Shown one piece after another: positions 34,154 through 56,738 of a stretch of 64,000 bases of DNA. Origin of the DNA: a virus; the IMG/VR virus record IMGVR_UViG_3300009071_000007, one strand, 5' to 3'. Below the pieces are notes generated by a model. That model saw nothing but the letters and a program-made list of their open reading frames with translations. It searched no databases and had not been told where the DNA came from. A program made the translations under genes and the position numbers. Position 1 is the stretch's first letter; each line of letters begins with the position of its first letter.

Positions 34154-34165
34154 CAATCTTCAGTA

Positions 34166-34591: not shown

Positions 34592-34593
34592 TC

Positions 34594-37500
34594 ATGGCTA
34601 AAAAGAAAACAACTAACAATAAAAAGAAGCGCGTAAATAGGTATCAAGGAGCGGGACCGTTTAAAGATGACGCTGCTAATAAAGCTCTACGTAATGCAGG
34701 TATTGGCTTCGCTGGTAGTACGCTTGCACGAGGTGTAGTATCCCCACTTATACAAAATAGACGAGCAGATAAAGCCGCATTTAACCAGTACACAGATATG
34801 ATGGACAGAGCGTATCAAAACTCTGGATATGACAGCTATGCTGATTACTGTCTAACAGGTGACTGTCCTCAAAATCCATTTCAAGGAGATCCCCCAAATT
34901 TTAGAGACTGGAGAAACCATGATTACTTTGGGGCAGGAGAAACTAATGCACGTCCTACATATAGGTTTCTAAATGACGTTAAAGAAAACCCACTACAAGG
35001 AACTATGGGCCCTGCGATCAAAGCAGGTGCAAGAGATGCTGCAATCAGTGGAGCACTTACTTATGGTGCAAACAAACTGCTTGACAATACCAAATTTGGG
35101 AGAAAGCTTAAGCGTAACTTTAATGTCAATCTAGGATTTAAGCGAGCATACCAAACTGGTGGGCCGCAGGGCAATCCATACGCTATGCCTACTTCTGCGT
35201 CTACATCAGGGTATACAAGTACTATGTCTGGAATGGCAGGAGCACACCAATCTCAAATGCAATTAGCACAACTTCAACAAGAAGTTATGGCTGAGCAGGC
35301 TAGAAGAAAAGAAGAGAATGACGCAAGAAATGCAGCAGAGGATGCACAATTTAAACAACAAGTTGCTGGTTTAGGTAGTGAGGAATTTTTAAGTCAAGCC
35401 AATACCGCCGTAAAAGACATTACGGGTAAGAGGGCTGCAGCACAAGATCTTAGAATGAAACAGGCGGCGGCAGACTATGGAGCAAGTCTTACCGGGCACA
35501 CAGCTAACGCAACTAACGTAAAAGACATAGTACAAGGAGGAAAAACGGCAGCAGAAGCTCTTAGTCCAACAGTTAATGTGGTCACGAACCCCATGTATAC
35601 TACGGGATCAAAACAAGTTATAACTTCTGCTGTACCTGATATGGGTAAGGAAGTTGTGCTGCAGGGTACTCAGCAGGTAGGACAAGAAGCAGGTAAACAG
35701 GTTGCGGCAGAAACAGGCAAGAATTTTGGTCTAGCTGCATCTGCAGCAAACCCAAGCTGGGCTAATCCTGCTGCCGCAATAGCAGCGGTCGGGGGCAAAG
35801 CAATTGAACATGTTGCAGACGATGACGACGATACTAAGATAAGCGCTGGGGAAGGAATAGGACGAGGGTTATCTGGTGCCGGACAGGGTGCATCAATTGG
35901 GTTGATGTTTGGTCCAGTAGGAGGACTTATTGGAGCAGGTGTAGGAGCACTAGCTTCACTCACCACACAACAAATACAAAAAAGAAAAGCGCGAAAAGAA
36001 GCAGAAAAACAAAGGCGTCAAGACGCAGTGAGAGCTAGTCAAGAAGGTACTCTATTTAAAAATGCAATGGTAACCCAAGGTCAAGACCTGGGCTACAATA
36101 TTGGTAACTCTCAAACTAACGCATATCTTCCTGGGTATCAAATGAAAGGAGGAGGTCTTTGGGCAAACATTCATGCCAAACGTAAACGTATAGCAGCAGG
36201 CTCGGGAGAGCGTATGCGTAATCCTGGAGACCCAGGAGCCCCTACAGAAGAAAATTTAAAGAACAGCAAGGAAGCTGGAGGCAGCTTTGTAAGATCTCTT
36301 CCCGGCGGGGCAGTAGAATTTGTAGGCCCTAAACATGCACAGGGGGGCATTATGATTGATCCGCAAACTGAAGTAGAGGGAGGTGAAACTATGGATAAAG
36401 TAGGCATGTCTACAGGAGGAGCTAAAGACTACATCTTCTCTGATTTCTTAAAGGTAGGCAAAAAGAGCTTCGCACAGCGACATAAAGAAATGCTCGATAG
36501 AGGAGCATCTCAAGCAGAAATACAACAACTTGCTAAGTTGCAAGAAGAAGTAGCACAGCGAAAGGGTAGAGATGAGAACGGTCCTAGAGACCCTAATATG
36601 ATTATGAGGAAAGGTGGTATGTATCAAGCTGGGAGTGCAGTTGAGAATACATATCTACCGCAAGATGAAACCCTTGATCCAGATGATCCTAGATTTACTG
36701 ACCAAGGTGTTGGATTTGACTGGTTCTATGATATAGAAGATGAGAACAATCCTGCAATTGATATGGCAGGACGTGTTGGACGAGAGGGAGACACCGAACA
36801 AATCCTTGCATCAAACTGGGCAAAACGTCAAGGCCTGCCAGAAGACATGACAACTGAAGAGCTTGAAAGCTATTATAACGATATATATCTCCCGCAGATA
36901 CAGGAATACTTCACTGCTAACAAAGAGCAAGTGGTTGCCAATGCAAAAAGAATGGCTATGCTTGATGACAAAAACCAATCTAACTTTACAAAGAGGATTG
37001 GTAAGGCAGAAGACGGCACGTTTGAAATGAGTGACGATGAGATATTTGAACAGGCACTTAAACTAACCACAGATGGGAATGTAGGTTCTTGGCACTCATT
37101 GCTTCCAAAAACAGGAACTCCGGAAGATGGGGGTGACGAAGGTGGGGGTGAGGAGTTTAATATAGAACAAGATATAGAGACTCAAGAAACAGAAATATCA
37201 CAAAAGGGGTGTCCTTGTGAAGATGGGTCTCTTTCCCCATCCTGCTGCGATATTCCAGAAAAGCGAGATATACTGCTTCCGTACCAATTGATTGGGCCAA
37301 TGGCAGAATTGACTAGCAAATACCCACAGCCTAATGCAATAGCTGCACAACCTACTGGTAGAATTAAACTCCCAAGAGTAAACTACAATGCAGAAAGAGC
37401 GTCCCTAGGAAACTCAACTACTGCAGCAAATAGGTTTATCCAAAACAACGCTGCTGGTCCTGCTGCAATTTCAGCTATGATGGCTACAAATGAAAAGCAG

Positions 37501-38154
37501 AGATCTGGTAACTTGGATATTGCCAACGCAGAAGCAAGAAGCAATAAAGAGCTTGCGGCACAAGAGAAGCTTGCTAACTTGCAAGCATCTCAATTTGACT
37601 CTACTCAAGGAATGCGGGCTTCTATGTTTAATGCACAAGCACAAAACCAGCGAGACCAGAATGAGTATGAGAAGCGTATGCTTGGATTTAATCAGTTGGG
37701 AACTAACCTTGCGCAGTACGCAAATGATCGTCGTGCATACGCAGGAGAAGAAAGAGCAGCAGAAGCATATCAAATAGATAATGAATACTCTAGACAAAAA
37801 GCTTATGAGGCTGCTATGTCTAAGCGTGGGAATAAGAAATCCCCATACTATGGTAAAAACCCTATGGAAATTAAAGAGATGATTGCACAGTCATTTCAGT
37901 ATGGGGCTCCAACATGGAATGCACAAAACACTCAAAGGCGTGACGCTGTTATTCAAAATATGAATCCAACAGCAGCGGGACCAACAACAACAATACAGGG
38001 CCCAACTACTGTAACAACTCAAACTAACGCTACAACTCCACAAGAGTTATTGCTCGCGCTCGAAAATGCATCAGGTACTGGTGCAACAGAACAAATGCTG
38101 ACCGGTGGATACCTTCGTAAGTTTGGAAAAATAAAGAGAAAAAGAAAAAAGTAA
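34594..38154 (+). CDS. giant virion cargo/ejection-protein candidate (1186 aa)
   Basis: It has a basic N-terminus (KKKTTNNKKKR) and C-terminus (KFGKIKRKRKK). A Gly-rich hydrophobic segment (GLSGAGQGASIGLMFGPVGGLIGAGVGALASL) and recurrent x-G-G motifs are present. No enzymatic motif recognised. Confidence 0.85.
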   Translation: MAKKKTTNNKKKRVNRYQGAGPFKDDAANKALRNAGIGFAGSTLARGVVSPLIQNRRADKAAFNQYTDMMDRAYQNSGYDSYADYCLTGDCPQNPFQGDPPNFRDWRNHDYFGAGETNARPTYRFLNDVKENPLQGTMGPAIKAGARDAAISGALTYGANKLLDNTKFGRKLKRNFNVNLGFKRAYQTGGPQGNPYAMPTSASTSGYTSTMSGMAGAHQSQMQLAQLQQEVMAEQARRKEENDARNAAEDAQFKQQVAGLGSEEFLSQANTAVKDITGKRAAAQDLRMKQAAADYGASLTGHTANATNVKDIVQGGKTAAEALSPTVNVVTNPMYTTGSKQVITSAVPDMGKEVVLQGTQQVGQEAGKQVAAETGKNFGLAASAANPSWANPAAAIAAVGGKAIEHVADDDDDTKISAGEGIGRGLSGAGQGASIGLMFGPVGGLIGAGVGALASLTTQQIQKRKARKEAEKQRRQDAVRASQEGTLFKNAMVTQGQDLGYNIGNSQTNAYLPGYQMKGGGLWANIHAKRKRIAAGSGERMRNPGDPGAPTEENLKNSKEAGGSFVRSLPGGAVEFVGPKHAQGGIMIDPQTEVEGGETMDKVGMSTGGAKDYIFSDFLKVGKKSFAQRHKEMLDRGASQAEIQQLAKLQEEVAQRKGRDENGPRDPNMIMRKGGMYQAGSAVENTYLPQDETLDPDDPRFTDQGVGFDWFYDIEDENNPAIDMAGRVGREGDTEQILASNWAKRQGLPEDMTTEELESYYNDIYLPQIQEYFTANKEQVVANAKRMAMLDDKNQSNFTKRIGKAEDGTFEMSDDEIFEQALKLTTDGNVGSWHSLLPKTGTPEDGGDEGGGEEFNIEQDIETQETEISQKGCPCEDGSLSPSCCDIPEKRDILLPYQLIGPMAELTSKYPQPNAIAAQPTGRIKLPRVNYNAERASLGNSTTAANRFIQNNAAGPAAISAMMATNEKQRSGNLDIANAEARSNKELAAQEKLANLQASQFDSTQGMRASMFNAQAQNQRDQNEYEKRMLGFNQLGTNLAQYANDRRAYAGEERAAEAYQIDNEYSRQKAYEAAMSKRGNKKSPYYGKNPMEIKEMIAQSFQYGAPTWNAQNTQRRDAVIQNMNPTAAGPTTTIQGPTTVTTQTNATTPQELLLALENASGTGATEQMLTGGYLRKFGKIKRKRKK
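38145..38151 (+). other. canonical -1 slippery heptamer A_AAA_AAG one codon before the stop of ORF 34594
   Basis: The zero-frame codons are aga aaa aag taa. A -1 slip reads GTA ATG GCA, which is the frame and start of ORF 38154. Confidence 0.3.
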
Positions 38155-40946
38155 TGGCATATCGTAATCTGTATACACCCTTATCTCAATTTGTAGATCC
38201 ACAATCTACAGAAATAGCACAAGAGCTAAGAGCTAAATATCTTACATCTTTTCAAGCTCAGGATCAGGTAGCTCAAGCATTATCACAGCTGCCTGTTGCC
38301 TCATTTGAGAATGATCAAAAGATTTACAATGACTTGTACAATAGTACTCGTGCTGAGATAGATGGGCTTGCATCTAGAGGGGACTACGAAAATATGTTTG
38401 TACCTGTCTCTCGTCTGGCAAGAACATACAAGAATACGGCAACGCCTCTTGAAACTAACTACAATAGATATCAAGCTGATGTAGAAACAAAAAAAGAGAT
38501 GCTTGACAAGGGTGAGATTACAATGTCAGACTATGAAGGCTGGCTTAAAAAAAGCAGGCTAAAACAAGGTACTGATGATTACACCCCGTACCTCGGTATT
38601 GAACTAGACGGTAATGGGAGAGCTGTCCAATCAAGCTATTATGGAGGCACCCCAATTGCACAATACGTAGACATACAGAAGGAGATACTTACGCAGCTTA
38701 ATCAAATCCCGGAAGTAAAAAGAGGAGGATATAAGGTAAAAGAAATACAAGCACCAGATGCTGACGGTCTAGTATTTGCAATTACACACAAAGATCAGAT
38801 AGTAGAATACGTCCCACAAGAAGCGGTAGATGCAGTGACTGCCAACATTGTGCAACGCCCAGATGTACAAGCCTACATGACGCAGTCTGCAGACTTCAAC
38901 ACTCTAGACCTTGATGAAAATGAGCTAGATACTATTCTTAGAACTGCAGCACAATCATATATGTCTTCAGAAGACAAAGACGAGCAAAGATATGGTGACC
39001 AGCTTGCACACATAATCTCTACACAAACTGTTGGGGGTAAAAGACGTGCTGTAAAAGCTATGCTGTACAACGAGGATATCAACCGCTATATGACTACAGC
39101 TAGATTGACTAGACAGCCTAGTGCATACGGAGGAAGCTATTCTGTATCCTACGAGTCAGCTCTCACAAACAAACTTAACGAAACCAGAGGTGGTGGAGCC
39201 GGTGCTTATACTCCAGTACTCCCAGGCGATAATGTAGTAACTACTAATAGTCACTTAATTGGAGAAGGGCAAACTGCCCCAACAATAGCCGGGGTTGAAG
39301 GGCACATCGGAAACATAGGCAACAACAAGGAGGCAGTAGAGTCAGCTTTGATGGAACTCCACCCAGAACTTGCAGACATATACGGCATACCTACTGGGCC
39401 TATGTCTGCTACAGGTGGGGAAGGAATTGGAGCTGCGGTAGGCTCTCTTCCTGGTGCTAACTCTTTTGAATCTATACAAGACGATCTCTACAAAGAGAAC
39501 GGAGTAGAAATTATAACTACTAAACTGCTATATGCAAACCCAGAACTGGCTGAAAATAAAGCACAGATTGAAAACCATCTAAGACAGGCTAGAGCAGATT
39601 TGTTTAACTATGATGCTCAAAGAGATGCGGCAGAGAAGATAATTAAAAACGCATACGCTGAATTTAAAGACACCTTCGTCAATGAGGTTATTGCAGATAT
39701 TAGCAATGACATAGAAATGCCTGCTCAGCAGCTCCCTACATTTTACAACAATCCAGGATTGGGACAAATAGGAGCTACTTATAACCCAGAAACTAATGAG
39801 GTAGAGTTTAAACAGTCAGGTACATTTGACCCTGATGCATATAAGCTTGGGGTTGCAGCAAACATTATGACTGAACTTGAATACGTAGAGAAGTTCGATA
39901 AGACTCTGTCTCGATCTGGGTTAGGGGGAAGTCTTGATGTTGGGGCTGCCTTGTTTAGTCAAATGTTTGGGTTGGATGCTGAAGAAGCTATGGCGCTTGC
40001 ACAGACTGCTTCAACTGTTACAGTAACAGGAACAGAACGTATAGAAAATCTGTCGCAAGGGTCGCTGCTTGATGGGGTAGGATACAGAGGAACAGCTGGA
40101 CCTGTTAGATCTATGACTGCAGGAGAAGACCGACTCACTGGAATGACAGCAGTTGGCTCTATGGGTAAGATTAACATACGTGAGAAGCTTGACAAAGCAA
40201 CTGAACAAGCTGAGGAAAGAATAGGTAAGCTTGGGCGGGTTACATATACTACAAGCCAGTCTGAGGCAGCACTTGGAGACTCAAGCGGTAAACTGTCTAA
40301 AGAGATTAATGATACGGTTAAGGGTAGATTCTTGAGCACCCTTGCAAATGTTCCTGTAATTCTTACAGAGTCAACACAAACTAGACTAAACGAAAACAAT
40401 CCAGAGATAGCTAATCAAGCAAGGGCTGGAGTTCCTGGATCAATTGTAACAATAGCAGATTTGTATAAAGAAGGAGACGAAGATTATGCTAAGGCAAAAA
40501 TAGCAAGAGCAGACTTTACCTCGTATCTTGACCCAGTAACAGGAAGCATGAAGGCCGGAATGTCTATAGAGACAAGTACCGGTGATCAAATTCTTGTTCC
40601 ATACGACGAATTAATTATGGGTTACGATCCAACAATGCCTAGCAAAATTACAAATACGTACAACAGTCCGGGCGGAATGATAGCTAGTAAAGCAATTGCA
40701 ACAATGCTCCAATACCCAACAGCATTTGGTGAAGAAAATGGGTATGTGCACAGAGATGTGATTGGGGGAAGAAGCGTAGAAATTGAATTCCTTGCACCAC
40801 AAATGCCATTAGAAGAAGATGGCCTTGCTGTTACAGCAGGACCAAATAGAGTTATTGTTAGAGCCAGTGGTGGAGCAGGAGAAGATGTGGAACAAGAACT
40901 AGCTATCGACGACTTCATAATATTCTATAACGCAGCAATACAATGA
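38154..40946 (+). CDS. giant virion cargo-protein candidate (930 aa)
   Basis: Uninterrupted ORF with a TAATG overlap upstream and an ATGA overlap downstream. No motif recognised. Confidence 0.85.
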   Translation: MAYRNLYTPLSQFVDPQSTEIAQELRAKYLTSFQAQDQVAQALSQLPVASFENDQKIYNDLYNSTRAEIDGLASRGDYENMFVPVSRLARTYKNTATPLETNYNRYQADVETKKEMLDKGEITMSDYEGWLKKSRLKQGTDDYTPYLGIELDGNGRAVQSSYYGGTPIAQYVDIQKEILTQLNQIPEVKRGGYKVKEIQAPDADGLVFAITHKDQIVEYVPQEAVDAVTANIVQRPDVQAYMTQSADFNTLDLDENELDTILRTAAQSYMSSEDKDEQRYGDQLAHIISTQTVGGKRRAVKAMLYNEDINRYMTTARLTRQPSAYGGSYSVSYESALTNKLNETRGGGAGAYTPVLPGDNVVTTNSHLIGEGQTAPTIAGVEGHIGNIGNNKEAVESALMELHPELADIYGIPTGPMSATGGEGIGAAVGSLPGANSFESIQDDLYKENGVEIITTKLLYANPELAENKAQIENHLRQARADLFNYDAQRDAAEKIIKNAYAEFKDTFVNEVIADISNDIEMPAQQLPTFYNNPGLGQIGATYNPETNEVEFKQSGTFDPDAYKLGVAANIMTELEYVEKFDKTLSRSGLGGSLDVGAALFSQMFGLDAEEAMALAQTASTVTVTGTERIENLSQGSLLDGVGYRGTAGPVRSMTAGEDRLTGMTAVGSMGKINIREKLDKATEQAEERIGKLGRVTYTTSQSEAALGDSSGKLSKEINDTVKGRFLSTLANVPVILTESTQTRLNENNPEIANQARAGVPGSIVTIADLYKEGDEDYAKAKIARADFTSYLDPVTGSMKAGMSIETSTGDQILVPYDELIMGYDPTMPSKITNTYNSPGGMIASKAIATMLQYPTAFGEENGYVHRDVIGGRSVEIEFLAPQMPLEEDGLAVTAGPNRVIVRASGGAGEDVEQELAIDDFIIFYNAAIQ

Positions 40947-43900
40947 GTAATAAGGGTACTATAAATCCCATTACAGGTCTTCCGCAACAAAACACTTTAA
41001 ACCCTATTACAGGGCTCCCGTTTACTACTGCAGAAGAGCTGGGTGCATTTCAAGCAAAAGTTAACCGCCAACGACCTCAAGTATCAGTAGCTCCTGGATT
41101 TGCTGCAACAACTGGGGACTTCTCTTCATATGCAGACAGAGGAGTAACACTTTCTGGGGGACCTAGCTACAAGGATTACTCTACTATAAGAGCCCTCAAT
41201 CAAAGCGCAGGAGAAAAATTGTTAATCGGGGCCAAAAAAGGAACCGTTACTGGAGCTAGCGCTTTTGTAAACGGATTGCTTGGTATGGCGGGCGCTCTTG
41301 ACTTTGCCGCTGGAAGTAATTTGAATCCTAAAAGCAGAGGATCTCTAGTTGGGACAGCTCAGGATTGGACAAATCTTGTTAATACTGAGGAGTGGCGGGA
41401 GAACTCTCGTAAAAACAATCCACACTATTACACAAAGACAGAGCTGGATAACATAGGAAACTTTAACCCATTCTCTGAAAACAACTCATTTACATGGAAC
41501 TTCCTTACTGACAAGATATTTGATGGTATAGGATTCTTAGTTGGGACAGCTGCATCAATATATGTTACAGCGGGTACAGGAGTTATTGGACGTGTTGGTC
41601 AGCTTGGGAATATAAGCAAGGGACTTGCAACGTGGAGAACTGCTAAAACTATAAAGAGTGGGCAGTCTTTGTCTAAGGCTCTTGGTACATACAGAACTAC
41701 TAAAAACGTAGCAAGTAAGATATACAACGGTGCTGCTAAGACCGAAGCAGCTTTCTTATCTGCAGTAGGGGAAGCATCTATTGAAGGAAAGGAAACAGGT
41801 AAACAAGTGTATGAAAAGCTATATGCAGAAGCTCTGAGAAAGAAGACTGCAATGGGTTTACCTGCACAGCTTTCTGCACAAGAAGTGCAACAGCTTAAGT
41901 TACAAGCATTAGAAGCAGAGGGTGCTGCTTTTTATTCAAACGTGGGAGTACTGAGCTTGAGTAACTCTATAATGTTTAGGGGTCTGTTCAAACAGTTTGG
42001 AAAAGCAGCAGGAACATCTAGATGGCTAAGAGCTGCAACAGCAGCAGAGAGAGCTGCAAAACCATCACTGCGTGTTGTAGACAAACTCAGTGGACTTCCA
42101 GGTTATGGTATTCGACAAACTGCACAAGCAGCAAGATTTTCAGCCCCCTTCTTAAAAACAATGGCGGCTGAAGGATCAGAAGAAGCTGCACAGTATGCAA
42201 TTACTGAGGGGATGATTGAGTACGAGATGGCAAAGATGCATGACTCCGGATTGGGGGATATAGTAGAAAGTCTTATTGACACAAATAAGCTCCGAATTGC
42301 AGCAGAGTCATCTCCTGAGGTTGCAAGTAAAATGCTTGAGACATTTAGTAACCCAGAAGCGCGAGAACAATTTGTCATTGGATCTATTGTTGGTATTCTG
42401 GGTGGGGGAATACAAGGCTACAAGGAATCAAAGGCAAGCAGAAAACAAAGAGATGAGCAGGCAACTTTGCTTAACAACGAAGGTATGTTCCGAGCAGCAA
42501 GAGGAGCAGAGTCTGTAAACAAGCAGTCCTTTTTCTTGCAGAGAATGAATGAAGCAGAGCAAGCAGGAGACAGGGAGCAATTTGAATACTATCAAAGAAG
42601 ACTGCAGGCAGAACAAATACTGCAGCATTATAATAAAGGAAGCTTAGACTTGTTCAGAGAGATGCTGGAAGACTCAAAAAGTCTCCCGGAGAATGAGTTC
42701 AAAGAGCTTTATGGAATCAGCCCAGAGACAGTTATAGACCAGAATAAACTGGTAGATGATATTGTATCTAGATCCAAAGAGATAGAGAAGTCTGCAGAAA
42801 TGATAGACGAACTCTACACAAGCTCCCCAACTGTTGGAGCAGGTAAGCTGTTCATGTCAAAAGAAGAGAAGGAGCTAGAGAAAAATAATCTTCAAGATGA
42901 AGCTATTTATAAAAACTATTTAAAGCTAGAGCTAGGGTCGCTAAAGTTTATTGATGGGGCAATCTCAGAGAAAGTAGATAAAATTGAGGAGATGTTCCCA
43001 GGCCTCTTGACAGATGTGCTTGTTACACAGACATACAAGAAAGGAAAAGAGGCAGACTATGAAGAGGGTACACGTACTAAGTCTGTTAATATGCGTGATC
43101 GTATACGCAACTATGTAAGAAACAGATTTGGGGAGGTGGCTCTAGAAGAAGGCAAATTCAGTTTAGATGTACAGCAAAATCTAGAAAAGAATCTAAACAC
43201 CATTCTAGCGAATAATCAAGAACACACAGAGTTCGAGACTGTCAGAAAAGAATTGGTAGAGCTTAGGGAGCTTATTAGTCAAAGGGGTAATGCAGTCACT
43301 GCATACAATAACCTCAACAGAAGCCCGGAGCTGCGAGACCTTGCAATATCTGGAACAAAGATTGCATTGGAGCGGGAAGCACAAACAAAGAGAGATGCAC
43401 TTGTTGATCAAATTATTGCAGATACTGTAACACCTGAACAACTAAAAGCAAAAGCGGATAGAATTCTGCAACAAGGGAGCATCTCAGAAGAAGCTAGAAA
43501 AAGAGCCAACGACGAAATAGCTGCAAGAACAAAAACCAGATCAGATGCTCAACAGAAATGGGACACTATGTCCAGACCCGCAGTTGAAAATCTTGAAGGA
43601 CTAAGCCCACTGCTAGACTCGTACAGAGAACAATATCTTAAGGACAGATCTCAAGAGGCCCCAATAAGAGATACTACTGTTGAGCAGAAGAGAAAAGCTG
43701 ATGAGGCAGCAGAAATAATAAAGAGACGAAAACAAGAGGGAGCACGACTTGCGGCTGAAAACCGCAAAACAGGAGAGCAATCTGCACCTGGACAACAGCC
43801 GACGGAGAAGGAACAAAAAGGATTGCAAAGGAGGATTGACAGGAGTAAAAAGGATTTTGCTGCCGCTACAAGTCTTGAAGAAAAAGCTAAAGCCCTTCTT

Positions 43901-46900: not shown

Positions 46901-49900
46901 GCAGATTGGTTCTTGCAGCACTCTTTCTCAACAGAAACTGATGGGTACATGAGTGATGAGGCAATGGAGGCAATTAAAAATGCAAAGAGCTCAGAAGAAA
47001 TAAAGAACGCTGTAAAGAAATACAAGCTTCAACGAAAACCCCCTCTGCAGGCATTTATAGAAGGTGAACTTCCTACTACTGTATTTAATAAAGAGGAGAA
47101 GACCCAGCGAAACACAGCGATTATTTTCTACAATGTATGGAAAAACTGGTTTGACGTTACAGATGAGCTAGGTAACATTGAACAATACGGGTGGAGAGAT
47201 GCAGCAGCTGCAGATCTTCTTAAGTATGGGTTCACTATTCAGACTAGAGTTGCTACACGTACTGCACTGGAGCAAGAGGAAGAAGGGTCTCCTGAACAGG
47301 AGGAGGTGAACTTCGACAAGATCTATGACATTTCTCACTTTGAACAAGACCCACTCAAAGTGGCATCTAAAGAAGTGAGAAACCTGCTGTCTAGAATCGT
47401 GGACACAACGCCTAACGTATTCGGGATACCTACTTATATAGACGTTGAGGCTACCCTTAGAAAAACAATTGCAGTTACTGCGGGCGCTAAAGGGTATTCA
47501 GAGATACTGGGTAGAATACAAGAGGCTGCTCGTATAGAAGAGATAGAAGCACAAAAGACAGATAGAAAAAGTCTGATACTTGGCCCACTTAAGGACTATC
47601 TTAATGGGACTCCTACAGCACAAGAGGTTGCGGCACTTACCCGCTTCTTAACTAAGACATACTCAGAGCTTAGAATTGTACAAGAAAATCAGATCGAGAC
47701 TACTGACGGTGGAGTAGAGATGTCTGTACAGACTATCAACTCTGACAGAAAGAGTGCAGTTATTAACTGGCAAGACACTTGGAAGAACGACGGACTTCAA
47801 ACGCTTTCAGTCCCAAGACCCGGAGCAGTATTTACAGAGACTGAAGATGGGGGTATTGCCTTTAACAACAACATAACTGAGGGTCAAAATAGAATAGACC
47901 TGCTTAAAGAGGCATTCCTCAACTACGATAGAGAGAACACAGTTGAAGGTAAGGCTACACAGCTAGGTAAAATAATGTGGAACCTTTCTTTGGGTATGGG
48001 CAGTACTGAGCAAGAGGCTACAGATCGCCTCATGTCTTACGTGCTAAAGAATACTACTCTAGACAACAATGAAATATCCAAGATATTTAAGAAGGTAATT
48101 TACTTGGCCAACCAAGCAGTAGACTTTAAGGTAGAGGGCGGAAGAGTAAAAGACGTGATGCTTAAGAAGGGCAAGGTTAGAAACTTCTTTGTATCAGAGG
48201 GATCTACAGTAAAGGAGCTTGCTAATATTGCTGCAGAATACAGTGTCCCAGTTGCAATAGCATATGTAAACGGGAAGGGAAAGACTATCTATCCATACAA
48301 CCTCCCCACACCATTCACTGATTTGATAGAAGATCTCAAACAAAATGCAGCTTCAAATAAGTATGCATTCTTGCAAGGAGATGAGTCTTTCACAGCAATG
48401 AACACTGAGCACAAAGCAATGCTCATGACCTTGATTGCAAATCCAGAATTTGAAATATCCAGCTGGGCACTTGATACTATCAACAATGAGGCATCAGATG
48501 ACGCTAACATAGAGTACAAGAAAATGTCCGAACGAGACTCTCTGATACTCAAACTCAATATGTTTGTAAACCAAGGGTCAGCTATAAAGTATGGATGGAT
48601 ACCTGTTTCAACTCAGGAGACTAGAGGCAGATTGGACTTTGTTAAGTTCCCTAAGATAGAAGAGAAGAACTTCGCAGCTGTAGAAGCAGCAGGCTTGCAA
48701 CGAGAAAGCTTTAGTGGAAGACTCAAGAGTGTTGTCATACGTGACTTGGTTCGACTTAGCAATAACCCACGTGTAGCTGAAAACTACAACAACGGCTTTC
48801 ACTTAACGGGCATAGTCAATACTAAACTAGGTAGTGGCCTTTTGATGTCTGAAACTGTAAAGGACTATCTACAAAACCCAAAGGGTAAAGAATATCAGGA
48901 CTTCAATAAGGAGCTTGACAGACAGGTAAAAGAATACGTAAACACTGTATTCAAACGAAATAGAGAGAACCTCCGCAACGAGCTCTTGCGATACAACATC
49001 ATACGATTGGTTGAAGGCAAGCCAGAGTTCTTGGAGAAGTCCAAGCTTGACTCGTCAGTTCAGAAATACGGGGGAGTAAATAGATTCCTCAATAACTATA
49101 TGATGACAGACATGCTAGCTCGCATTGAGATGGCAGAGATGTTACGTGGTGGTGTTGTACAATTTGAGAACTTAACCAAGTTCTACAAAAGAATGGGTCT
49201 TATACAAACTCCCGGAGATAAGCTTATGCAGAAGGGAGAGTTTGAAGCTGATCCAGATTACGGAATGGCCCCAACAATTGTGGAGGCCTCTATAGAGAAA
49301 ATGCAAAACCAAGAGCCCTTTCATAACGAGGCAGCCGACAATCTTCGAGACCTTTCACTAGCTCCTTTCTATGAAAAGACTATGAAGATGTCTAAAGAGG
49401 AGGCACTTAAAAAAGCAGAAAGCATAGCAAAACAGTACAGAAACGATTTTGGTGACCATACAGATGCCCAAGCATTTGCTTCAGATCTCTTCTACAAAAT
49501 GTATAAGCAGGGTAAAGGACAGTGGACATCAGAAGATGACGTGTGGTTTGATGAATATCTGAACAAAAAAGGAGAATGGAAAGGGGATAAATACATAGAG
49601 CCTATAAAGCCATTTGTAAACAATCAGGTTATGGAGAATGGGGCGTCTATATCTGATATGCAGAAGAACTCACTCTTGGTTGTTACGCGACCACTAGCAG
49701 AAATGAACACAGTTCTGGCGGCTATGTATCTTAGAATGAACAAAGCGGGGGACAACATACACATAATAAATACGGAGTCTGCAAAGAAGGGTGCGAAGGG
49801 TCAGGAGTTTGCTGTAAATCAAGAACTTGGAGCGACCATGTTTGAAGGACTTGAAGGAACAGAGATGAGCACAGATGGGTTGTACATACCACAAACTATA

Positions 49901-50110: not shown

Positions 50111-52854
50111 AAAAGAATCCAGGTAACAAAGAAGCACGACTTAAATTCCTGCAGAGAGTGAAAAGCGTTATTATGGATAACGCAATGAAGAATAACAAGC
50201 TTGACTCTAACTTAGATAAACAACTTAGGATCGTAGAGGACATGGTAAATAACACCGTGGACTTTAATGTCCCAACATATATGCCTGTTTATCAGCGGCA
50301 GTTACAGAACCAAATCTTCTCTCTGTTTAGATCCAATGTGTACCAGGTTAAGCTACCAGGACGTGACCTTGTACAAGCAAACTCTGGAGGTAAGTGGAAG
50401 ATTGGGGATGAGATAAGAGAGCTTAGACATATACATATAGATGAAAAAGGGAATACAGTGGCGGCAGAGATAATGATATCTGAAGACCTGGCAGAAATGC
50501 ATGGTATAGAGGTTGGGGATCGCATTATAATGTACCGTATCCCAAACCAGGACTACTCTTCAGCAGTCCCATCTCAAGTTGCTGGTATCCTTCCTCGAGG
50601 ATACTCAAAGACAGTTATGGTGGCAGGTGGTATTACAATTCAAACAGGATCTGACTTCGATATTGATAAACTATTTAACCTGTTTGAGAACAAGGATCCC
50701 AAGAATAGACTGGATAGGTTAAAGAATGAGCTGTTTAATATCTCCTATTCTATATTAATGAATAAGGAAACAGCACCCTACCTGTTTGCCCCACTTAATC
50801 AGGATACACTAAACGATCTAGCCGACAATCCTGAAATTGCAAAAGAAGAAGTCAGAGATTTTGATGACCCACTTGTAGAAATCAAGATGGAGTCTAACTA
50901 TAAAAGTGCTGCAACACTTGTGGGTGGGTATGCTAATGCTATTGCAGGTATGAGCATTGCTAATGTTGCATCTCAGTTCGAGAATGAAGAATACGTACAG
51001 AACGGTATAGCAGTAAATGCATCTAAGAAATTCATACTAAATGACACAGCACTTGGTCTGATATCTACTAGGTCAGAGATGACAAACGAAAGAAATATTG
51101 CTGGAATCGTAGAGAGACTTTCTGCAGCGCTAGATGCTGGTAGTAAATTAATCCACAGTACGCTTAACGATAATGATATTACTCTCAACGCTACAGTGTA
51201 TCTTAAGAGTATAGGATTTGGGGACCGAGATGTAGTGGCATTAATGACGACCCCCCTTGTTAGGGAGTTTGTTGAAAGTAAAAGAGACAACAGAAACAAG
51301 AGTAACCAGAGAGTATTCCAAGATTTAGGAATTAATAGAAAGACCTACAGCAAAATTGCAAGCTTTGATAGCAGCATACTGCCCCCAGCTTTAAATACTG
51401 AGGAACTTGAAAGAGTTTCTAAAGAGGGGAATAGAAAAGATCCGGTTGCAAAAGAAGCATTGTACGCATTTGCGCATGCACTTGTAGCAGGTAACAGCTT
51501 GTCAGACTTCTACAGAGTCATTGCTGCAGATAACCTGGATGGGATGGGGGACCTTGCTGAGATTGAGGCATACCTGGATGTGCTAGATAACTACAAGAGA
51601 AGCGGTAACAGAAACATCGTTGGTTACTCAGAGGTGGAGAAGATACTTAAGGGGGATGCATATAGAATTAGTAGAGCCTTCTTCAACATCATAGATGAGT
51701 CGATGCAGATATCATCGGAGCTGTTTATGAGCGGGACGAAGGGGGTTAGAGAGTTTAAACAGTTGCTGAAGGATGTTGCTGGAAAGCAAACTATGACTGC
51801 TGCAGAGCACAGATTTGTAGACAGAGCATTGTTCTACCACATCTTTACTAAGGAGGGTTCTCCGATAGGATCATTGATGCAGAAGTCTGTAGTAAAGTCG
51901 ATGCTTCTTGATCCTAAAAACAACTTGTACAAACAAGTGAAAGACCTGATCGAGGAGATTCCAGCATTGAGAAGTAACTCTATGATTGCGTCTATTAAAG
52001 AGGGACCTAAATACAATGATCCTACTACAAGAGTGTTTGGAATAAGCATAGAGAACACGGAGAAAATGTCACTCAGAGCAAGAGAAACCCAACGTCAGTC
52101 GTTTGGAGATCTATTGTACAGACCGGAGAAATACACTAGTGACCCACAAGAACAGAAGAAGATCCAGAATATGGGTAAGAGACTGGTACTCAACTCAATC
52201 GTAACAACCGGACTTGCACCTTCTTATGGTACATACTACGACGCCATCCCAATAGACTTCTTTATGGAGATAGCTGACGAGAGTGGGAAGACCTTGATGC
52301 AGTACTTGCGAGAAGAATTCCAGAATGTCAAGAATGACGAGAGATACTTTGACGATTTCATGTTCAGCTTTATGCAGAACTACGGTGCCGCTACTGTAGC
52401 ATCTGCACCACTTGTTGGACGAATGCCACGTTCGTATGTGCAACGCGGTGAAGGACTGTACGGATTGCCTGCATCAGTAGAACTAGATGGTCGTCCGGCG
52501 CGATATGTAACAAGAGCTAATTACAGTAAGGGTGTAGATAAGATGTCAGTGTATGAGTATAACAACACAGATGAGATGTATCACCTAATACAGAGCACGA
52601 GTATAACTAATAAGATTATCGAGCTCAACCTCAGAGACAGAAATGGGGATATTGTAACTAGCAGTTTCTTTGCTGAAAGCCAAGGAGAAAGAAAAGTAAG
52701 GATGGCAGGTAAAGGTAAAGGAAAAGATAAAGTTGTAGATTTACATTCTAGAGCTGGAATTACAAAGACTATGTCTGATCCTATGACTATGAACGAGGAG
52801 ACAAGAAGAATCAGAACTACAGACAGCTCTTCAGATATATCACATGTTTGCTAA
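50107..52854 (+). CDS. beta-prime-like double-psi beta-barrel RNA polymerase catalytic module (915 aa as an ORF; likely fused to or partnered with ORF 40943)
   Basis: SLFRSNVYQVKLPGRDLV .. VGDRIIMYRIPNQ .. VMVAGGITIQTGSDFDIDKLF parallels RpoC [20 protein letters not shown] .. [11 protein letters not shown] .. [18 protein letters not shown]. DFDID lies at 50653-50667. The track start is a TTG. The first ATG is at 50173, and the frame is open back to 50065. Confidence 0.7.
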   Translation: MKKNPGNKEARLKFLQRVKSVIMDNAMKNNKLDSNLDKQLRIVEDMVNNTVDFNVPTYMPVYQRQLQNQIFSLFRSNVYQVKLPGRDLVQANSGGKWKIGDEIRELRHIHIDEKGNTVAAEIMISEDLAEMHGIEVGDRIIMYRIPNQDYSSAVPSQVAGILPRGYSKTVMVAGGITIQTGSDFDIDKLFNLFENKDPKNRLDRLKNELFNISYSILMNKETAPYLFAPLNQDTLNDLADNPEIAKEEVRDFDDPLVEIKMESNYKSAATLVGGYANAIAGMSIANVASQFENEEYVQNGIAVNASKKFILNDTALGLISTRSEMTNERNIAGIVERLSAALDAGSKLIHSTLNDNDITLNATVYLKSIGFGDRDVVALMTTPLVREFVESKRDNRNKSNQRVFQDLGINRKTYSKIASFDSSILPPALNTEELERVSKEGNRKDPVAKEALYAFAHALVAGNSLSDFYRVIAADNLDGMGDLAEIEAYLDVLDNYKRSGNRNIVGYSEVEKILKGDAYRISRAFFNIIDESMQISSELFMSGTKGVREFKQLLKDVAGKQTMTAAEHRFVDRALFYHIFTKEGSPIGSLMQKSVVKSMLLDPKNNLYKQVKDLIEEIPALRSNSMIASIKEGPKYNDPTTRVFGISIENTEKMSLRARETQRQSFGDLLYRPEKYTSDPQEQKKIQNMGKRLVLNSIVTTGLAPSYGTYYDAIPIDFFMEIADESGKTLMQYLREEFQNVKNDERYFDDFMFSFMQNYGAATVASAPLVGRMPRSYVQRGEGLYGLPASVELDGRPARYVTRANYSKGVDKMSVYEYNNTDEMYHLIQSTSITNKIIELNLRDRNGDIVTSSFFAESQGERKVRMAGKGKGKDKVVDLHSRAGITKTMSDPMTMNEETRRIRTTDSSSDISHVC

Positions 52855-52865
52855 ATAAAGAATAA

Positions 52866-55800
52866 ATGAGTTGCAGATTTAAAGTCGGAGGTATAGATAA
52901 CCCATTGCTTTCAGACGTTATGTTCTACGTAGAGGATACTGCTGCAGAAGCAAGAGATCCATACAAAATAAAGCAGATGCTGGACGGCAAGATAGCCGTC
53001 TTAGATGGGGATACTCTTTACTTGCGAGATGATGTAATGGATGCAAGAAAAGAAATAGGTTACATCAACGCAGCAGCCCAAGACTTTTTTGGGGCATACA
53101 CAAATCTGATTACTGAGACTCGAGAAGGGAAGAACGTAAGGCTGGATATAGACCCTGAAGTATTGGAGGTTATGTTTAGAAATACTTCAGTGCAGTTTAC
53201 TATGTCTGAAGACACAGACATTGAGGCTGAAGGTGAAGATCTGACGCAAGACCCACTAGTAGACGAGGTATTTAATGTACAAGAAAGGGTAGATAATACA
53301 ACAGAAAAGCTCTTAACAAATGTGGAGCTTCAGATAGGGAGACTCGAGCGCTTAGAGCAGAAGGAGAAGACTAAGCAGAAGCTACGAGAGCTGGAGCTGT
53401 TAAAAGCAAACCTAAAGAAAATAAAGCAGGGACAGGAGAAGATATCTGACTATGCTGAATACATAGACTATGTCTTCGCACTAGCACAGAGAGCTGAGAA
53501 GTTGTACGATAGAATACAACAAGAGTATGCAGTTAGCTATAAAACAATGCCCAATGAGGATAAAGCTAACATACTTAAAAACATCTCAGACCTGCAGCAG
53601 ACTATACAAGCATTCTACAATAAGGACAAAAAGAAGTCCGCTCTTACTATTCTCAAAAACAAACTAGATACTCTAGCGGATACTGAAGGTTTAAAAGATG
53701 ACCTACTGCAAGACGTACGAGATACTATAAAAAGAATGGATGCTCTAGATGATAGGTACTTAGCTGTAGCTATCCCAATACAAGCAAGATTGCTTCTGTC
53801 ATTTGCTCCTATAGGTGTTAATCAAAAAATAGATGCAGACATAGAGTTTCTAGAAAAGGCGTTGGAGGAAAATAATCTTAACATCCCATTCCGAGGACTA
53901 GAGAGAAACAATAAACAATACGAAGCAATAGCTATGGAACGTAACCTTCGATCTGGTTACGGGTTACTTGACAGCAGACAAGCAAAGCAAAATAGACAAC
54001 GACGTCTGATAGAGCTAAATATCAAGCAGCTTAAAGAAAAACGTATTGGGCCAGCTCGTATCATAAAAGAGTTGAGAGAAACACACCAGGATGCATCCGG
54101 GTTCTCACTTTACACAGATCCTTTGGTTTACAGCTCGGATATTACACTCAGTTTGTTTTCAAGTGCAATCAAAACAGGCCTACTTGAAGGCCACAGAAGC
54201 ACCATAGATACTAAGTTTAAACTGCGTGATGCTTTCTACAAGTTTAGAGATGCAAGTACTGCGTCAGAAAGAAACCCGGCAGAAATGTTTAAGGATATGC
54301 TAGAGGTAGTTTCTGTGTATCGTAAAAACAAGAAAACACAGAAGGTAGAGAAGACTAATATCTTGAGTATTGTACAGCCTTTTGATATAGCTAGCTACAA
54401 CGAGAAGCAGAATACAATGTTTGAGCTTGCAAAAGAAGAATACGGCTACCCAGAGGATGTCTCAGAACTTGATGACTTCTTTAGAAGTAAAGAGGGAAGA
54501 CTATACAACCAAACAGTTGCGGAGTGGTATTCAAAAAATGGAAGACCGATAGACGGAGCTCAGGACATAATTGATGACATGCTTAATAAGCGGGATAAGA
54601 TACTACTCGCACGAAATAAAGCGTACAAAGAGGGTAGGGACTTTGAAGCAAGGGAGCTGTCTTATCAGTACAATGCGCTGGACCTTGAGATAAAGAAAGT
54701 ATACCGACGAGGAAAAGGGGGATGGGTAATTACAGGTAGCCTAACACAACCTAATGATAGCTACATTAACCCTAAGTTTACGAACATGCCCGCAGCAACA
54801 AGAGAGTTCTACGACGTGTTTATGGAGGTGTATAAAGAGCACCAAGCTAAACTTGGGAGACGCCCAATGGTTCAGAACTCCTGGGACAATTTTTCTTACA
54901 TGGCTCCTGCTATACTAAAGGATGCCATAGACTCTTTCAAAGAAAAGAAGTTTAAGGAGGGTGCCCAAAACGCAATTGGGGATGTGTTTACACAGAATGA
55001 AACCGATACAGAGTTTGGGGAACTCATCGATGCAAATGGGGAGAAGTTAAGAGTAATCCCCAAATACTTTACGAATACAGTAGAGGAGTCTAAGATCTCC
55101 AGAGACATAGTAAACAGTCTAGTCAAATTTGTTGACATGGCTAACCGCTATGAAGCCACAGCTAAAATGGCTGGAGTAGTTAATGTGATGCATGACTCTA
55201 TTAGAGATCGTACTGTTAAAGAACTGTCTGCTACAGGTATCCCAATAGTAGATAAGACTGCACAGCGACTAGGATTTGGAATAGAAAAAGAGGGACTTGG
55301 AAAAGATAGTCGAGACTTTGAGCATCTTAAAAACTTCATAGATAATGTAATCTATGGAGAGAGCATGAGAAAGCAGGAAACTGATAAAATCTTAGGATTC
55401 TCAAAGACAAAGCTTTACGGTAAAGCCGCGTCACTTACTGCACTATCAAGACTTGGATTTAACGGGCTGCAAGCTACTAACCAGTTGATAATAGACTCTA
55501 TATCAAATGGATCTGAAGGCTGGGCAAGACAGTTCTACAGCAAGGGAAGTCACTTCAAGGCACAGACAATAGTTAACCTCGCTCTGTCTGATCTTGGGAC
55601 AAGTGTAAGCGAGGCAATCTCACCTAAGTTTGTTAAACAAAGTAAGCTAAATCAAATGGCTGAAATGTTTGATGTCTTCCAGGAAATGGGTAGAACAGAG
55701 GATGTTACTGGGAGTGCTGTAAGAAAAGCCACTAACCTAAACTCCGTGTTTATTTTGCAAAGAATCCCGGAATGGCAAACAACTATGACGAAGATGGTGG

Positions 55801-56738
55801 CCCTTGCTCTAGAACAAAAAGGGTTCAAAGATAAGAATGGGAACATCATCAAAAATAAAGAGGGGGAAGAGGCAAATCTTTGGGATATATTAGAAAAGGA
55901 TTCAAAAGGTCAGTTAAAAGTTAGATCTGATGTTGCAAACTTTGGGAACAAAGAGATGGGTATGTTTGCCGCCAAAGTATCCGGGATGGTAAAGAGAACC
56001 AACCAGTTGAAGGGGAGCTTTGATAAGACTCTTATAGAGAGACAGGGGGCTTTGTCATTAGTAGCTCTGTTCCGCAAGTTCTTGAATCCTGCATACAGAA
56101 AAAGAATGGGTCACAGAAGTGGGGGATACCACATCGACGTAGAGCTAGGAGATATAACAGAAGGGTACTACACTACATATTATAATGCTATCACAGCAGC
56201 GGTACGTGGATTTAAAAATGACCCAATAGACTCTCTAAAACTCCTGGTTGGGAAAAGCAAGAATCAAAATGAATTGCAGAGACAAAACATTCGCAGAATT
56301 TTGCATGAGCAATTCTACATTACAATGACCGGAATGATAACACTGATTCTAAATGGTATGATGGACGATGATGATGAGTATGATAACTGGTACACACACA
56401 TGGCAATCTACCAGATGAATAGACTTCAAACAGAACTCAAAGCATTTAGAAGCGTAAATGAATTTGGGAGAATAATAGAGTCCCCCACTGCAGCTGCTAA
56501 CCTAGTTAAGGATGCATCCCAGCTTATTACAGCTACAAACAACTTAGCCGGATACTATATGGGTTGGCCAACAATAGAAGAAAAGGATGTCTTCTATCAA
56601 CGACGGTCTGGTAAATACGAGAGGGGAGATCTTAAGTGGGTTAAGGAACTAGAAGATATACTCCCAGTAATAAGCGGTATTGTAAAGACCGGGGACCCAG
56701 AAGAAGCTAACAAATATTTCATCCTTAGTAATAAATAA
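52866..56738 (+). CDS. giant virion cargo-protein candidate (1290 aa)
   Basis: This uninterrupted ORF is the last gene of the plus-strand arm. It has coiled-coil-rich regions and a hydrophobic segment (FYITMTGMITLILNGMM). No enzymatic motif recognised. Confidence 0.85.
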   Translation: MSCRFKVGGIDNPLLSDVMFYVEDTAAEARDPYKIKQMLDGKIAVLDGDTLYLRDDVMDARKEIGYINAAAQDFFGAYTNLITETREGKNVRLDIDPEVLEVMFRNTSVQFTMSEDTDIEAEGEDLTQDPLVDEVFNVQERVDNTTEKLLTNVELQIGRLERLEQKEKTKQKLRELELLKANLKKIKQGQEKISDYAEYIDYVFALAQRAEKLYDRIQQEYAVSYKTMPNEDKANILKNISDLQQTIQAFYNKDKKKSALTILKNKLDTLADTEGLKDDLLQDVRDTIKRMDALDDRYLAVAIPIQARLLLSFAPIGVNQKIDADIEFLEKALEENNLNIPFRGLERNNKQYEAIAMERNLRSGYGLLDSRQAKQNRQRRLIELNIKQLKEKRIGPARIIKELRETHQDASGFSLYTDPLVYSSDITLSLFSSAIKTGLLEGHRSTIDTKFKLRDAFYKFRDASTASERNPAEMFKDMLEVVSVYRKNKKTQKVEKTNILSIVQPFDIASYNEKQNTMFELAKEEYGYPEDVSELDDFFRSKEGRLYNQTVAEWYSKNGRPIDGAQDIIDDMLNKRDKILLARNKAYKEGRDFEARELSYQYNALDLEIKKVYRRGKGGWVITGSLTQPNDSYINPKFTNMPAATREFYDVFMEVYKEHQAKLGRRPMVQNSWDNFSYMAPAILKDAIDSFKEKKFKEGAQNAIGDVFTQNETDTEFGELIDANGEKLRVIPKYFTNTVEESKISRDIVNSLVKFVDMANRYEATAKMAGVVNVMHDSIRDRTVKELSATGIPIVDKTAQRLGFGIEKEGLGKDSRDFEHLKNFIDNVIYGESMRKQETDKILGFSKTKLYGKAASLTALSRLGFNGLQATNQLIIDSISNGSEGWARQFYSKGSHFKAQTIVNLALSDLGTSVSEAISPKFVKQSKLNQMAEMFDVFQEMGRTEDVTGSAVRKATNLNSVFILQRIPEWQTTMTKMVALALEQKGFKDKNGNIIKNKEGEEANLWDILEKDSKGQLKVRSDVANFGNKEMGMFAAKVSGMVKRTNQLKGSFDKTLIERQGALSLVALFRKFLNPAYRKRMGHRSGGYHIDVELGDITEGYYTTYYNAITAAVRGFKNDPIDSLKLLVGKSKNQNELQRQNIRRILHEQFYITMTGMITLILNGMMDDDDEYDNWYTHMAIYQMNRLQTELKAFRSVNEFGRIIESPTAAANLVKDASQLITATNNLAGYYMGWPTIEEKDVFYQRRSGKYERGDLKWVKELEDILPVISGIVKTGDPEEANKYFILSNK

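Follow-up and report, generated by a model that had tools for sequence, protein, structure and literature searches.

The sequence considered here is the IMG/VR virus record IMGVR_UViG_3300009071_000007, a stretch of 64,000 nt referred to as the window (all coordinates are window positions). Between positions 34594 and 56738 it harbors five consecutive large open reading frames (ORFs), all on the plus strand: A (34594-38154, 1186 amino acids (aa)), B (38154-40946, 930 aa), C (40943-50110, 3055 aa), D (50107-52854, 915 aa, TTG start) and E (52866-56738, 1290 aa). In an earlier note on this DNA the block was proposed to be a virion-packaged cargo module that is injected into the host together with an RNA polymerase (RNAP) of the DFDxD type, and the present analysis concerns its relation to the cargo and RNAP genes of crAss-like phages. 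The coordinates and lengths given in that note agree exactly with the six-frame ORF list. The junctions, which it described as overlapping or nearly so, are a 1-nt overlap between A and B (TAATG), 4-nt overlaps between B and C (ATGA) and between C and D (TTGA), and a spacer of 11 nt between D and E. Both of the enzyme motifs that it named were found, i.e., HEAFH at residue 1806 of C (nt 46358-46372) and DFDID at residue 183 of D (nt 50653-50667). We infer that ORFs of 900-3000 codons in DNA with 42% G+C cannot have arisen by chance.

The surroundings of the block are those of a crAss-type structural arm. The block is found, as had been claimed, at the distal end of the morphogenesis genes, where it comes after the terminase, the portal, the major capsid protein (MCP), tail ring protein 1 and the muzzle. 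PHROG matches identify the first three of these as crAss-type, the MCP is ~30% identical to MCPs of Crassvirales only (tblastn), and tail ring protein 1 (22718-24109) is assigned from PF24228 (CrAss_Ring_1, E 5e-51). On the 3' side of the block the coding strand switches to replication-type genes, including a uracil-DNA glycosylase, a 5'-3' exonuclease and rIIA/rIIB-like genes. A megablast search with C gave no match among deposited phage records; the source is therefore a distant, uncultured crAss-like phage. Homologs were located in environmental assemblies from JGI, ENA, Logan, Tara and IMG/VR; by its gene content the window is a divergent environmental member of the crAss-like phages. Searches of the five ORFs against Pfam, PHROGs and NCBIfam were essentially empty, the only PHROG match of the block being a basic motif in A; an NCBIfam match to PFK (15.8 bits, cutoff 395) was rejected as noise. 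Of the phmmer searches against the PDB, those with A, B, C and E were without a significant match, which leaves D as the only one of the five ORFs with a significant hit.

This hit is gp66 of Cellulophaga phage phi14:2 (PDB 6VR4), where residues 1331-1573 are matched by D with an E-value of 1e-13; it is the sole PDB match of D. Residues 139-195 of D align with gp66 1317-1373 (49% identity, E 2e-11), and two further segments align with gp50 of Bacteroides phage crAss001, i.e., D 47-190 with gp50 1336-1490 (E 2e-12) and D 229-385 with gp50 1645-1798 (E 4e-7). A profile of the clade matches gp66 at 1317-1375 (E 1e-12) and at 1465-1558. The DFDID motif occupies residues 183-187 of D, at residue 3238 of the C-D fusion discussed below, and is followed by the bridge-helix region. 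Its fourth position is Ile, and DFDxD with Ile or Val at this position has been used as the criterion for a crAss-like RNAP (bioRxiv 10.1101/2020.03.07.982082). The motif reads DFD[IV]D in the relatives CD9 and P0002 and D[FY]DxD in nearly all full-length family hits.

The remaining part of the polymerase is found at the end of C. A word-indexed homolog search was nearly blind in this region, with 3 hits for D and 1 hit for the C-terminal third of C, and tblastn of C 1901-3055 against phage records gave no match. An exhaustive HMMER search of 1.84 billion representatives (profile E-values scaled to Z = 1.8e9) yielded 101 homologs of C 1901-3055, and in nearly all of the full-length homologs a DFDxD motif is located just downstream of the matched region. 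The family profile of C 1901-3055 aligns in one piece with gp66 128-1168 (E 3e-34) and also matches gp50 97-1303 (E 3e-39). Because of this profile match, C 1901-3055 is assigned as the N-terminal half of the polymerase, ending in the connector at gp66 1095-1238, which joins the two double-psi barrels; the feature itself covers C residues 1901-3045 (46643-50077), equivalent to approximately gp66 10-1170, and runs into the connector. Together with ORF D (50107-52854), the catalytic C-terminal half, the polymerase spans residues ~1900-3970 of the fusion. By sequence homology the end of C and D are thus predicted to form a crAss-like virion RNAP of the gp66/gp50 family, i.e., an enzyme of the two-barrel, QDE-1-like type. 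The phi14:2 gp66 is a virion protein with a Mg- and DFDID-dependent, rifampicin-resistant RNAP activity that transcribes early genes (bioRxiv 10.1101/2020.03.07.982082).

In the window the two halves of this polymerase are encoded by separate ORFs, and five ORFs had been counted in the earlier note. The boundary between the 3055-aa and 915-aa ORFs is set by a run of five A residues (A5) at 50074-50078 that is one base shorter than in relatives. The shorter run creates both the stop codon of C (50108-50110) and the TTG "start" of D (50107), upstream of which the reading frame of D is open for just 42 nt. The halves are joined in L016, L011, L006, L009 and L004. The first of these, an ENA contig with 99.94% identity to the window across 15.9 kb, has 9 substitutions and only one gap, which is A6 versus A5 in the window, and its gene is called at 3970 aa, the exact length of the repaired C+D fusion. 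The run is A6 also in L011 (95-99% nucleotide identity), and L006 (95%) has GCAAAGAAGCTT where the window has GCAAAAAGCTT (AAAGAAG in L006), with CTG replacing the TTG "start". Among more distant relatives, L009 and L012 (44-48% identity) encode an uninterrupted 3741-aa protein with HEAFH and DFDVD, and in L004 (41% identical to D) the junction is read through. Furthermore, the alignment of the clade profile to gp50 1057-1529 crosses the C/D junction as a single segment, the D region follows the N-terminal half in the same chain in all 76 of the 76 family members that match D, and the exact 3055-aa product of C is on record in no assembly. Because five relatives read through the junction, C and D are one gene and the block consists of four genes rather than five. 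The one-base difference behind the C/D break is found in the window sequence only; its A5 run is due either to a homopolymer error or to a mutation private to it.

Two other explanations would assign a role to the break. A genuinely two-subunit polymerase would be cut in the inter-barrel connector, as are the cellular beta and beta' subunits, and D would be translated from the coupled TTG. The break, at ~gp66 1160, does lie within the connector (gp66 1095-1238), the place at which cellular RNAPs are divided, the TTG overlaps the stop codon of C, and fragmented RNAP ORFs have been described in zeta-group crAss-like phages by Yutin et al. (PMC7886860). We nevertheless consider a real split very unlikely: the length of the A run is the sole junction difference from the nearly identical contig with its single 3970-aa product, the other relatives (L011, L006, L009 and L004) read through, L006 lacks the TTG, none of the 76 family hits is broken at this position, and the nonsense change that the window alone has in its essential muzzle gene points to errors or a defective variant. 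Alternatively, programmed -1 slippage at the A run, ribosomal or transcriptional, could yield, in addition to the full-length polymerase, a truncated product composed of the N-module and zincin-like domain described below and the non-catalytic half of the enzyme. On A AAA A, re-pairing of tRNA-Lys in the -1 frame is possible, and a shift to this frame restores exactly the sequence of the relatives. However, the A5 run lacks the form of a canonical X XXY YYZ heptamer and is too short for efficient transcriptional slippage. All relatives, including the 99.94%-identical one, are plainly in frame, hence there is no conserved recoding signal, and we give this explanation hardly any credence. The single CD gene with a private one-base defect is the reading adopted in the following.

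A different form of fragmentation is seen in L011 (ENA ERZ10646685 contig_34981), where the cargo and RNAP genes are broken into pieces that include ORFs of 1868, 76, 1006, 624 and 133 aa. The breaking indels are found at positions other than that in the window, and the pattern resembles a noisy long-read assembly. Fragmented "RNAP subunits" in contigs of this type should not be taken as biology.

The repaired CD gene is predicted to encode one polyprotein of ~3970 aa that is composed of a gp47/g067-like N-module, a zincin-like domain and a complete two-barrel RNAP of the QDE-1/gp66 type. The N-module, which resembles "RNAP-associated" proteins, extends over 40943-46204, i.e., from residue 1 of C to about residue 1700-1754. 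Residues 96-499 of C align with gp47 101-522 of crAss001 (E 1e-12), the clade profile of the N-module matches gp47 with E 5e-19, and in the relative CD9 residues 13-350 align with phi14:2 g067 11-313 (E 4e-8). The N-terminus of the module is common to CD and 11 giant homologs, and a hydrophobic segment is located at C residues 192-210. A variable insert is found at C residues ~954-1133 (43797-44385). This insert has no alignment to L011, which is otherwise 95-99% identical, and it is also the place where the alignments with L009 and with the giant homologs are interrupted. A minus-strand ORF of 160 aa (43651-44133) that overlaps the insert is probably spurious.

A disordered, charged linker (predicted local distance difference test, pLDDT, <50) separates the N-module from the zincin-like metallopeptidase domain at C residues 1755-1905 (46205-46657). 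Here, the HEAFH motif is followed by a Glu pair (nt 46472-46477), and H1806, E1807, H1810, E1844 and E1845 are invariant across 21 diverse homologs. Residues 1783-1870 of C align with gp47 2134-2219 of crAss001 (E 2e-11), including a shared YHEAFH. In the AlphaFold2 (AF2) model the core of the domain has a pLDDT of 82-94 and consists of a small sheet, the HExxH helix and a helix that carries the Glu pair. The modeled fold is compatible with a zincin and the conservation is at the level of motifs; the domain is referred to as zincin-like for this reason.

The arrangement of these parts varies across the family. Seven architectures were distinguished in a survey of 65 full-length cluster representatives, where the RNAP is found alone in 23 clusters, preceded by the zincin-like domain in 16, and preceded by both the N-module and the zincin-like domain, as in the window, in 12 (representatives of 3185-4974 aa). 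An E-like module is added after the zincin-like domain and RNAP in 6 clusters, after the N-module, zincin-like domain and RNAP in 5 (up to 5515 aa), and after the RNAP alone in 2, while a single cluster has the N-module joined directly to the RNAP. The distance between HExxH and DFDxD is usually ~1370-1550 residues (1432 in the window), and many of the forms that carry the E-like module have a second motif, HEFGH, just before it. The combination of 3055 and 915 aa, which the earlier note could not relate to described examples, is hence a single frameshifted gene, the same fusion is found in 12 of the 65 clusters, and fusions of this kind are described in the literature. In certain phages the three products of the RNAP region are fused into one huge polyprotein that is probably cleaved, with the zincin as a candidate activator (bioRxiv 10.1101/2020.03.07.982082). 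Drobysheva et al. mention the giant fused polyproteins with reference to Yutin et al. 2018, and elsewhere fused RNAP polyproteins of "up to ~6000 aa" are mentioned (PMC10136315). Other giant RNAP polyproteins of crAss-like phages have the same order of N-module, zincin and RNAP and the same HExxH-to-DFDxD spacing as that in the window; in the window clade, in contrast, E is a separate protein and the HEFGH-containing second zincin is absent.

The literature consulted assigns the zincin to the gp65 orthologs. What is new from the survey is that a zincin-like domain is placed consistently just upstream of the polymerase, and that natural gene-fission points are found on both sides of this domain. 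The gene boundaries in the family are located either ~100-130 residues on the 5' side of HExxH, as in the zincin-RNAP proteins, or ~180 residues past it, as in gp47/gp50 of crAss001. The domain may act as a self-processing protease of the 3970-aa precursor, in which case cleavage would take place at the fission points and release the active polymerase from its N-module, either during maturation or once ejection has occurred. We put this forward as a tentative idea, and regard it as rather unlikely at present.

The gene adjoining that of the RNAP, 11 nt past D, encodes protein E (52866-56738, 1290 aa), in which residues 128-1272 are conserved. Residues 628-1252 align with gp49 696-1313 of crAss001 (E 8e-35) and residues 580-1270 with g065 688-1402 of phi14:2 (E 2e-18). 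The profile of E matches gp49 with E 2e-41 (segment 687-1296, E 4e-40) and g065 with E 4e-19 (segment 691-1366, E 7e-19). In 12 giant homologs with fused modules, the C-terminal part is likewise E-like, with E-values between 1e-52 and 1e-154. The HExxH motif was not found in E, i.e., the second zincin motif (HEFGH) of many relatives is absent. The homology indicates that E is an RNAP-associated virion protein of the gp49/gp65 type.

On its 5' side the block directly adjoins the gene of the muzzle, the tail gatekeeper (29687-34591, plus strand; phrog_15100 and PF25729, crAss_MUZ_C). An in-frame TGA at 34151-34153 splits this gene into an ORF of 1488 aa and one of 141 aa (34166-34591), such that the seeming intergenic gap at 34153-34594 is coding sequence, the tail of the muzzle gene. 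When the muzzle ORF is read through, the Pfam crAss_MUZ_C alignment spans the TGA. The muzzle is uninterrupted (1634-1669 aa) in L008, L009, L010 and L013-L015, and three assemblies that are 99.86% identical to the window have GGA (Gly) at the stop codon and a continuous gene of 1634 aa; in relatives further removed, the site is occupied by a Gly or a Tyr codon. Recoding of TGA to Trp was rejected as an explanation, as TGA terminates 8 of 35 ORFs, including those with overlapping ATGA junctions, no tRNAs are found, and the codon is Gly or Tyr in relatives and GGA in the same strain. A looser cluster of differences from the 99.86%-identical strain is found in the N-terminal part of the muzzle, at 29728-30286.

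Protein A (34594-38154) begins 3 nt past the end of the repaired muzzle ORF, i.e., it holds the position right after the muzzle gene that cargo protein 1 has in crAss001 and phi14:2. From 59 homologs, conserved cores were defined at residues 160-300, 379-697 and 865-1132. In a comparison using hhalign, the profile of the A family matched gp45 471-585 of crAss001 with a probability of 75.6% (E 2e-5), while four control proteins gave at most 0.1%. The aligned part of gp45 overlaps the domain that is bound to the portal, residues 425-552 (PMC10172136). A CARG1-like region is located at A residues 594-761 (36373-36876); the match to PF25725 (crAss_CARG1) was obtained only via P0164, the most divergent homolog of A, and was below threshold. 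PDB searches with A (phmmer) and with an alignment of the A core (profile) were empty. Position, hhalign match and physicochemical properties suggest that A is probably a relative of the crassvirus cargo protein 1, i.e., a gp45-like ejection protein.

Of the physical features that the earlier note attributed to the block in general, the strongly basic termini were confirmed for A only, where the first 30 residues have a net charge of +8 and the last 30 one of +7; the termini of the other proteins range from -5 to +1. Gly-rich hydrophobic segments are present in A, as a Gly-zipper at residues 435-456 (35896-35961), and in C at residues 192-210; they were not found elsewhere, where E has one ordinary hydrophobic segment. 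The position of the segment in A differs from that of the transmembrane helix predicted at residues 136-158 of gp45 (PMC10172136). The single PHROG match of the block (phrog_16028, E 5e-17) is to a very basic motif, GLWANIHAKRKR (GGLWANIHAKRKRIAAGSGERMR), at A residues 520-558 (36151-36267).

In relatives, the basic motif GGLWANIHAKRKRIAAGSGERMR is swapped for a different cassette, RGLWDNIRANKGSGKKPTK, and a score against Pfam DUF5824 is obtained for the homolog P0111 at the equivalent place. The N-terminal ~180 residues (18-198, nt 34645-35187) recur with 53-62% identity in the otherwise unrelated proteins P0155-P0163, most of which begin with a DUF192 domain and are homologous to the post-portal ORF of the window at 7094-10225; this ORF itself matches the A N-terminus faintly (E 0.036). 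The pattern suggests that the module has been exchanged between two probable internal virion proteins, perhaps with a role of the segment in packaging or in binding to the tail barrel. Furthermore, 14 of the 24 differences from the 99.86%-identical strain are crowded into 54 nt (34702-34755, A residues 37-54). A diversity-generating retroelement was rejected as the origin of this cluster, as the changes are not adenine-specific, and the cluster looks like a small recombination patch.

Protein B (38154-40946, 930 aa) is acidic (net charge -52) and is kept in the same position, with 37-100% identity, in L008-L010 and L013-L015. It has no match in Pfam, PHROG, NCBIfam or the PDB. As the positional equivalent of gp46 it would be cargo protein 2, which is a positional inference only.

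The order of these genes was compared with that in the two studied phages, as the earlier note had suggested for crAss-like and Cellulophaga phages. In phi14:2 the order is g071 (muzzle-like, 1340 aa), g070, g069, g068, g067 (1797 aa), g066 (the virion RNAP, 2180 aa) and g065 (1421 aa), after which the coding strand changes, and the window is colinear with g071-g065. At the end of the structural arm the two agree in gene order and strand, and their DFDID motifs are identical; gp66 128-1168 and 1317-1558 are colinear with CD, g065 with E, and the g067 N-terminus, through a relative, with that of CD. The sum of g067 and g066 is 3977 aa, compared to 3970 aa for C + D. In contrast to phi14:2, the g067-like and g066-like parts of the window are one polypeptide with the zincin between them, E is without the HExxH that is found in gp65 (HEIMH), and the sequence identity is very low outside of the catalytic barrel. 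In crAss001 the set that matches the window layout is gp44, gp45, gp46, gp47, gp50 and gp49, i.e., the same five functional parts are present: both the N-terminus and the C-terminal zincin of gp47 (YHEAFH...EExMAExFR) align to C, gp50 97-2135 to CD, gp49 to E and, with moderate support, the portal-bound region of gp45 to A. However, gp47 of crAss001 is encoded by a separate gene that ends in the zincin, on the strand opposite to gp50-gp49, whereas in the block all genes are on one strand and the gp47-like, zincin and gp50-like parts are fused; a relationship between B and gp46 is not detectable.

From these data we conclude, with a probability of about 0.88, that the block of four genes (A, B, CD and E) belongs to a divergent environmental phage of the crAss-like type and is its version of the conserved "cargo + virion RNA polymerase" module. 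Homology (to 6VR4, gp66, gp47 and gp49/gp65), colinearity with phi14:2 and conservation of the motifs are all observed here, and they support the original proposal of an injected cargo module with a DFDxD polymerase. The crAss-like cargo and virion RNAP, which had been named as an analogue, turn out to be homologous, and counterparts in both phages are virion components: by mass spectrometry, gp45, gp46, gp47, gp49 and gp50 of crAss001 (PMC10172136) and gp65, gp66 and gp67 of phi14:2 (bioRxiv 10.1101/2020.03.07.982082) were found in virions.

A number of results weigh against this conclusion or against parts of it. The window, with both the muzzle stop and the RNAP frameshift, might represent a defective genome or an assembly of lower quality. 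The link of A to gp45 is moderate: A itself matches neither PF25725 nor any other Pfam family, hidden Markov model profiles of the A clade and family gave no match to gp45, gp46 or g068-g070, and the AF2 model of A 490-729 is poor (pLDDT 51.5), which makes the Foldseek search with this model meaningless. For B, the comparison to gp46 yielded E 0.14 (blastp), no match in the profile search and 2% in hhalign; hhalign gave 11% for g068, and B profiles did not match g068-g070. With the model of the zincin-like domain, Foldseek returned no significant hit (best E 0.25; the top specific hits were the ArdC protease domain, PPEP-1/3 and FtsH), and a PDB profile search with the alignment of this domain was empty.

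The earlier note had named an assignment of the products to ordinary tail families as grounds for rejecting its proposal. The giant ORFs would then be tail, tape-measure or baseplate components or fibers rather than ejected enzymes, as could be suggested by their place at the end of the structural arm, by the typical make-up of tape measures as long, helix-rich proteins of low complexity, and by B and most of A being without an assigned fold. However, matches to tail, tape-measure, baseplate or fiber families were found in neither Pfam, PHROGs nor NCBIfam, there is strong homology both to an RNAP of solved structure and to virion proteins associated with the RNAP, and crassviruses are podovirus-like, without a tape measure (PMC10172136), which makes this explanation highly improbable.

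The N4 virion RNAP and the "polyvalent proteins", which the earlier note also listed as analogues, are analogous in function only. The N4 system resembles the block in that a giant encapsidated polymerase (gp50) with accessory parts at its N- and C-terminus, one of which has an HExxH, is ejected together with two membrane-spanning proteins (gp51 and gp52). A horizontally acquired system of this type, i.e., a T7-like single-subunit polymerase or a conjugative-element effector, would account for the three-part logic of an N-terminal part, a polymerase and a C-terminal part with HExxH (PMC13434306) and for ArdC, a protein delivered by conjugation, being the best, non-significant fold hit of the zincin-like domain. 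Yet the N4 polymerase has a T7-like single-subunit fold and is not homologous, and PDB searches with the five ORFs gave gp66 as the only significant match and nothing N4- or T7-like, even though the N4 virion RNAP is in the PDB (2PO4; PMC13434306). In addition, the catalytic motif is that of the two-barrel DFDxD type, the context is a complete crassvirus structural arm, and the searches revealed no polyvalent-protein domains. As regards homology, the N4 or polyvalent explanation is already refuted, its probability being practically nil, and a functional analogy remains.

If, because of its homology to the studied systems, the crAss-like module of the window works as in crAss001 and phi14:2, packaging into the virion, ejection, processing and early-gene transcription would be expected for it as well. 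In crAss001 the storage sites of the cargo are the capsid and the tail barrel behind the muzzle, and gp45, which spans the portal, has been proposed to leave first and to form a channel with gp46 (PMC10172136). The products of the block would accordingly be made late and packed in the capsid and the tail barrel behind the muzzle gatekeeper. Upon infection they would be extruded ahead of the DNA in a partly unfolded state, where A, as a membrane-active ejection protein, and B could help to build a trans-envelope channel. The polymerase would refold in the cytoplasm and transcribe early genes independently of the host RNAP, and the zincin-like domain may cut the precursor.

The system as such is already known and the block reveals no new kind of system; this divergent environmental phage adds a new member to it. 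In terms of annotation, a named module replaces 22 kb of "hypothetical" sequence, and two defects (the frameshift at 50074-50078 and the stop at 34151-34153), which would otherwise be misread as an odd gene architecture, are flagged. A clade with an MCP ~30% identical to those of known Crassvirales provides a natural single chain of gp47-like module, zincin and virion RNAP, and the survey of 65 clusters, with the constant spacing of HExxH and DFDxD, offers testable boundaries for the organization of the polymerase and its partners, and possibly for processing. In a 2026 paper on the N4 virion RNAP it was noted that the relation of the three RNAP-associated crassvirus proteins to the domains of the N4 enzyme warrants further investigation (PMC13434306), a question on which the single-chain forms bear.

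Two further features of the window were also noted. Over the region of C, D and E (40001-56000) the GC skew is 0.12-0.17, as compared to 0.01-0.09 in other structural genes on the plus strand, and the AT skew is high too. Within the structural arm, a gene for a DNA repair exonuclease of the SbcD/Mre11 type is found at 18689-19825 (phrog_704, E 1e-57), overlapped by ~155 nt by an ORF at 19671-20126; the metallophosphatase g075 of phi14:2 sits at a comparable place.

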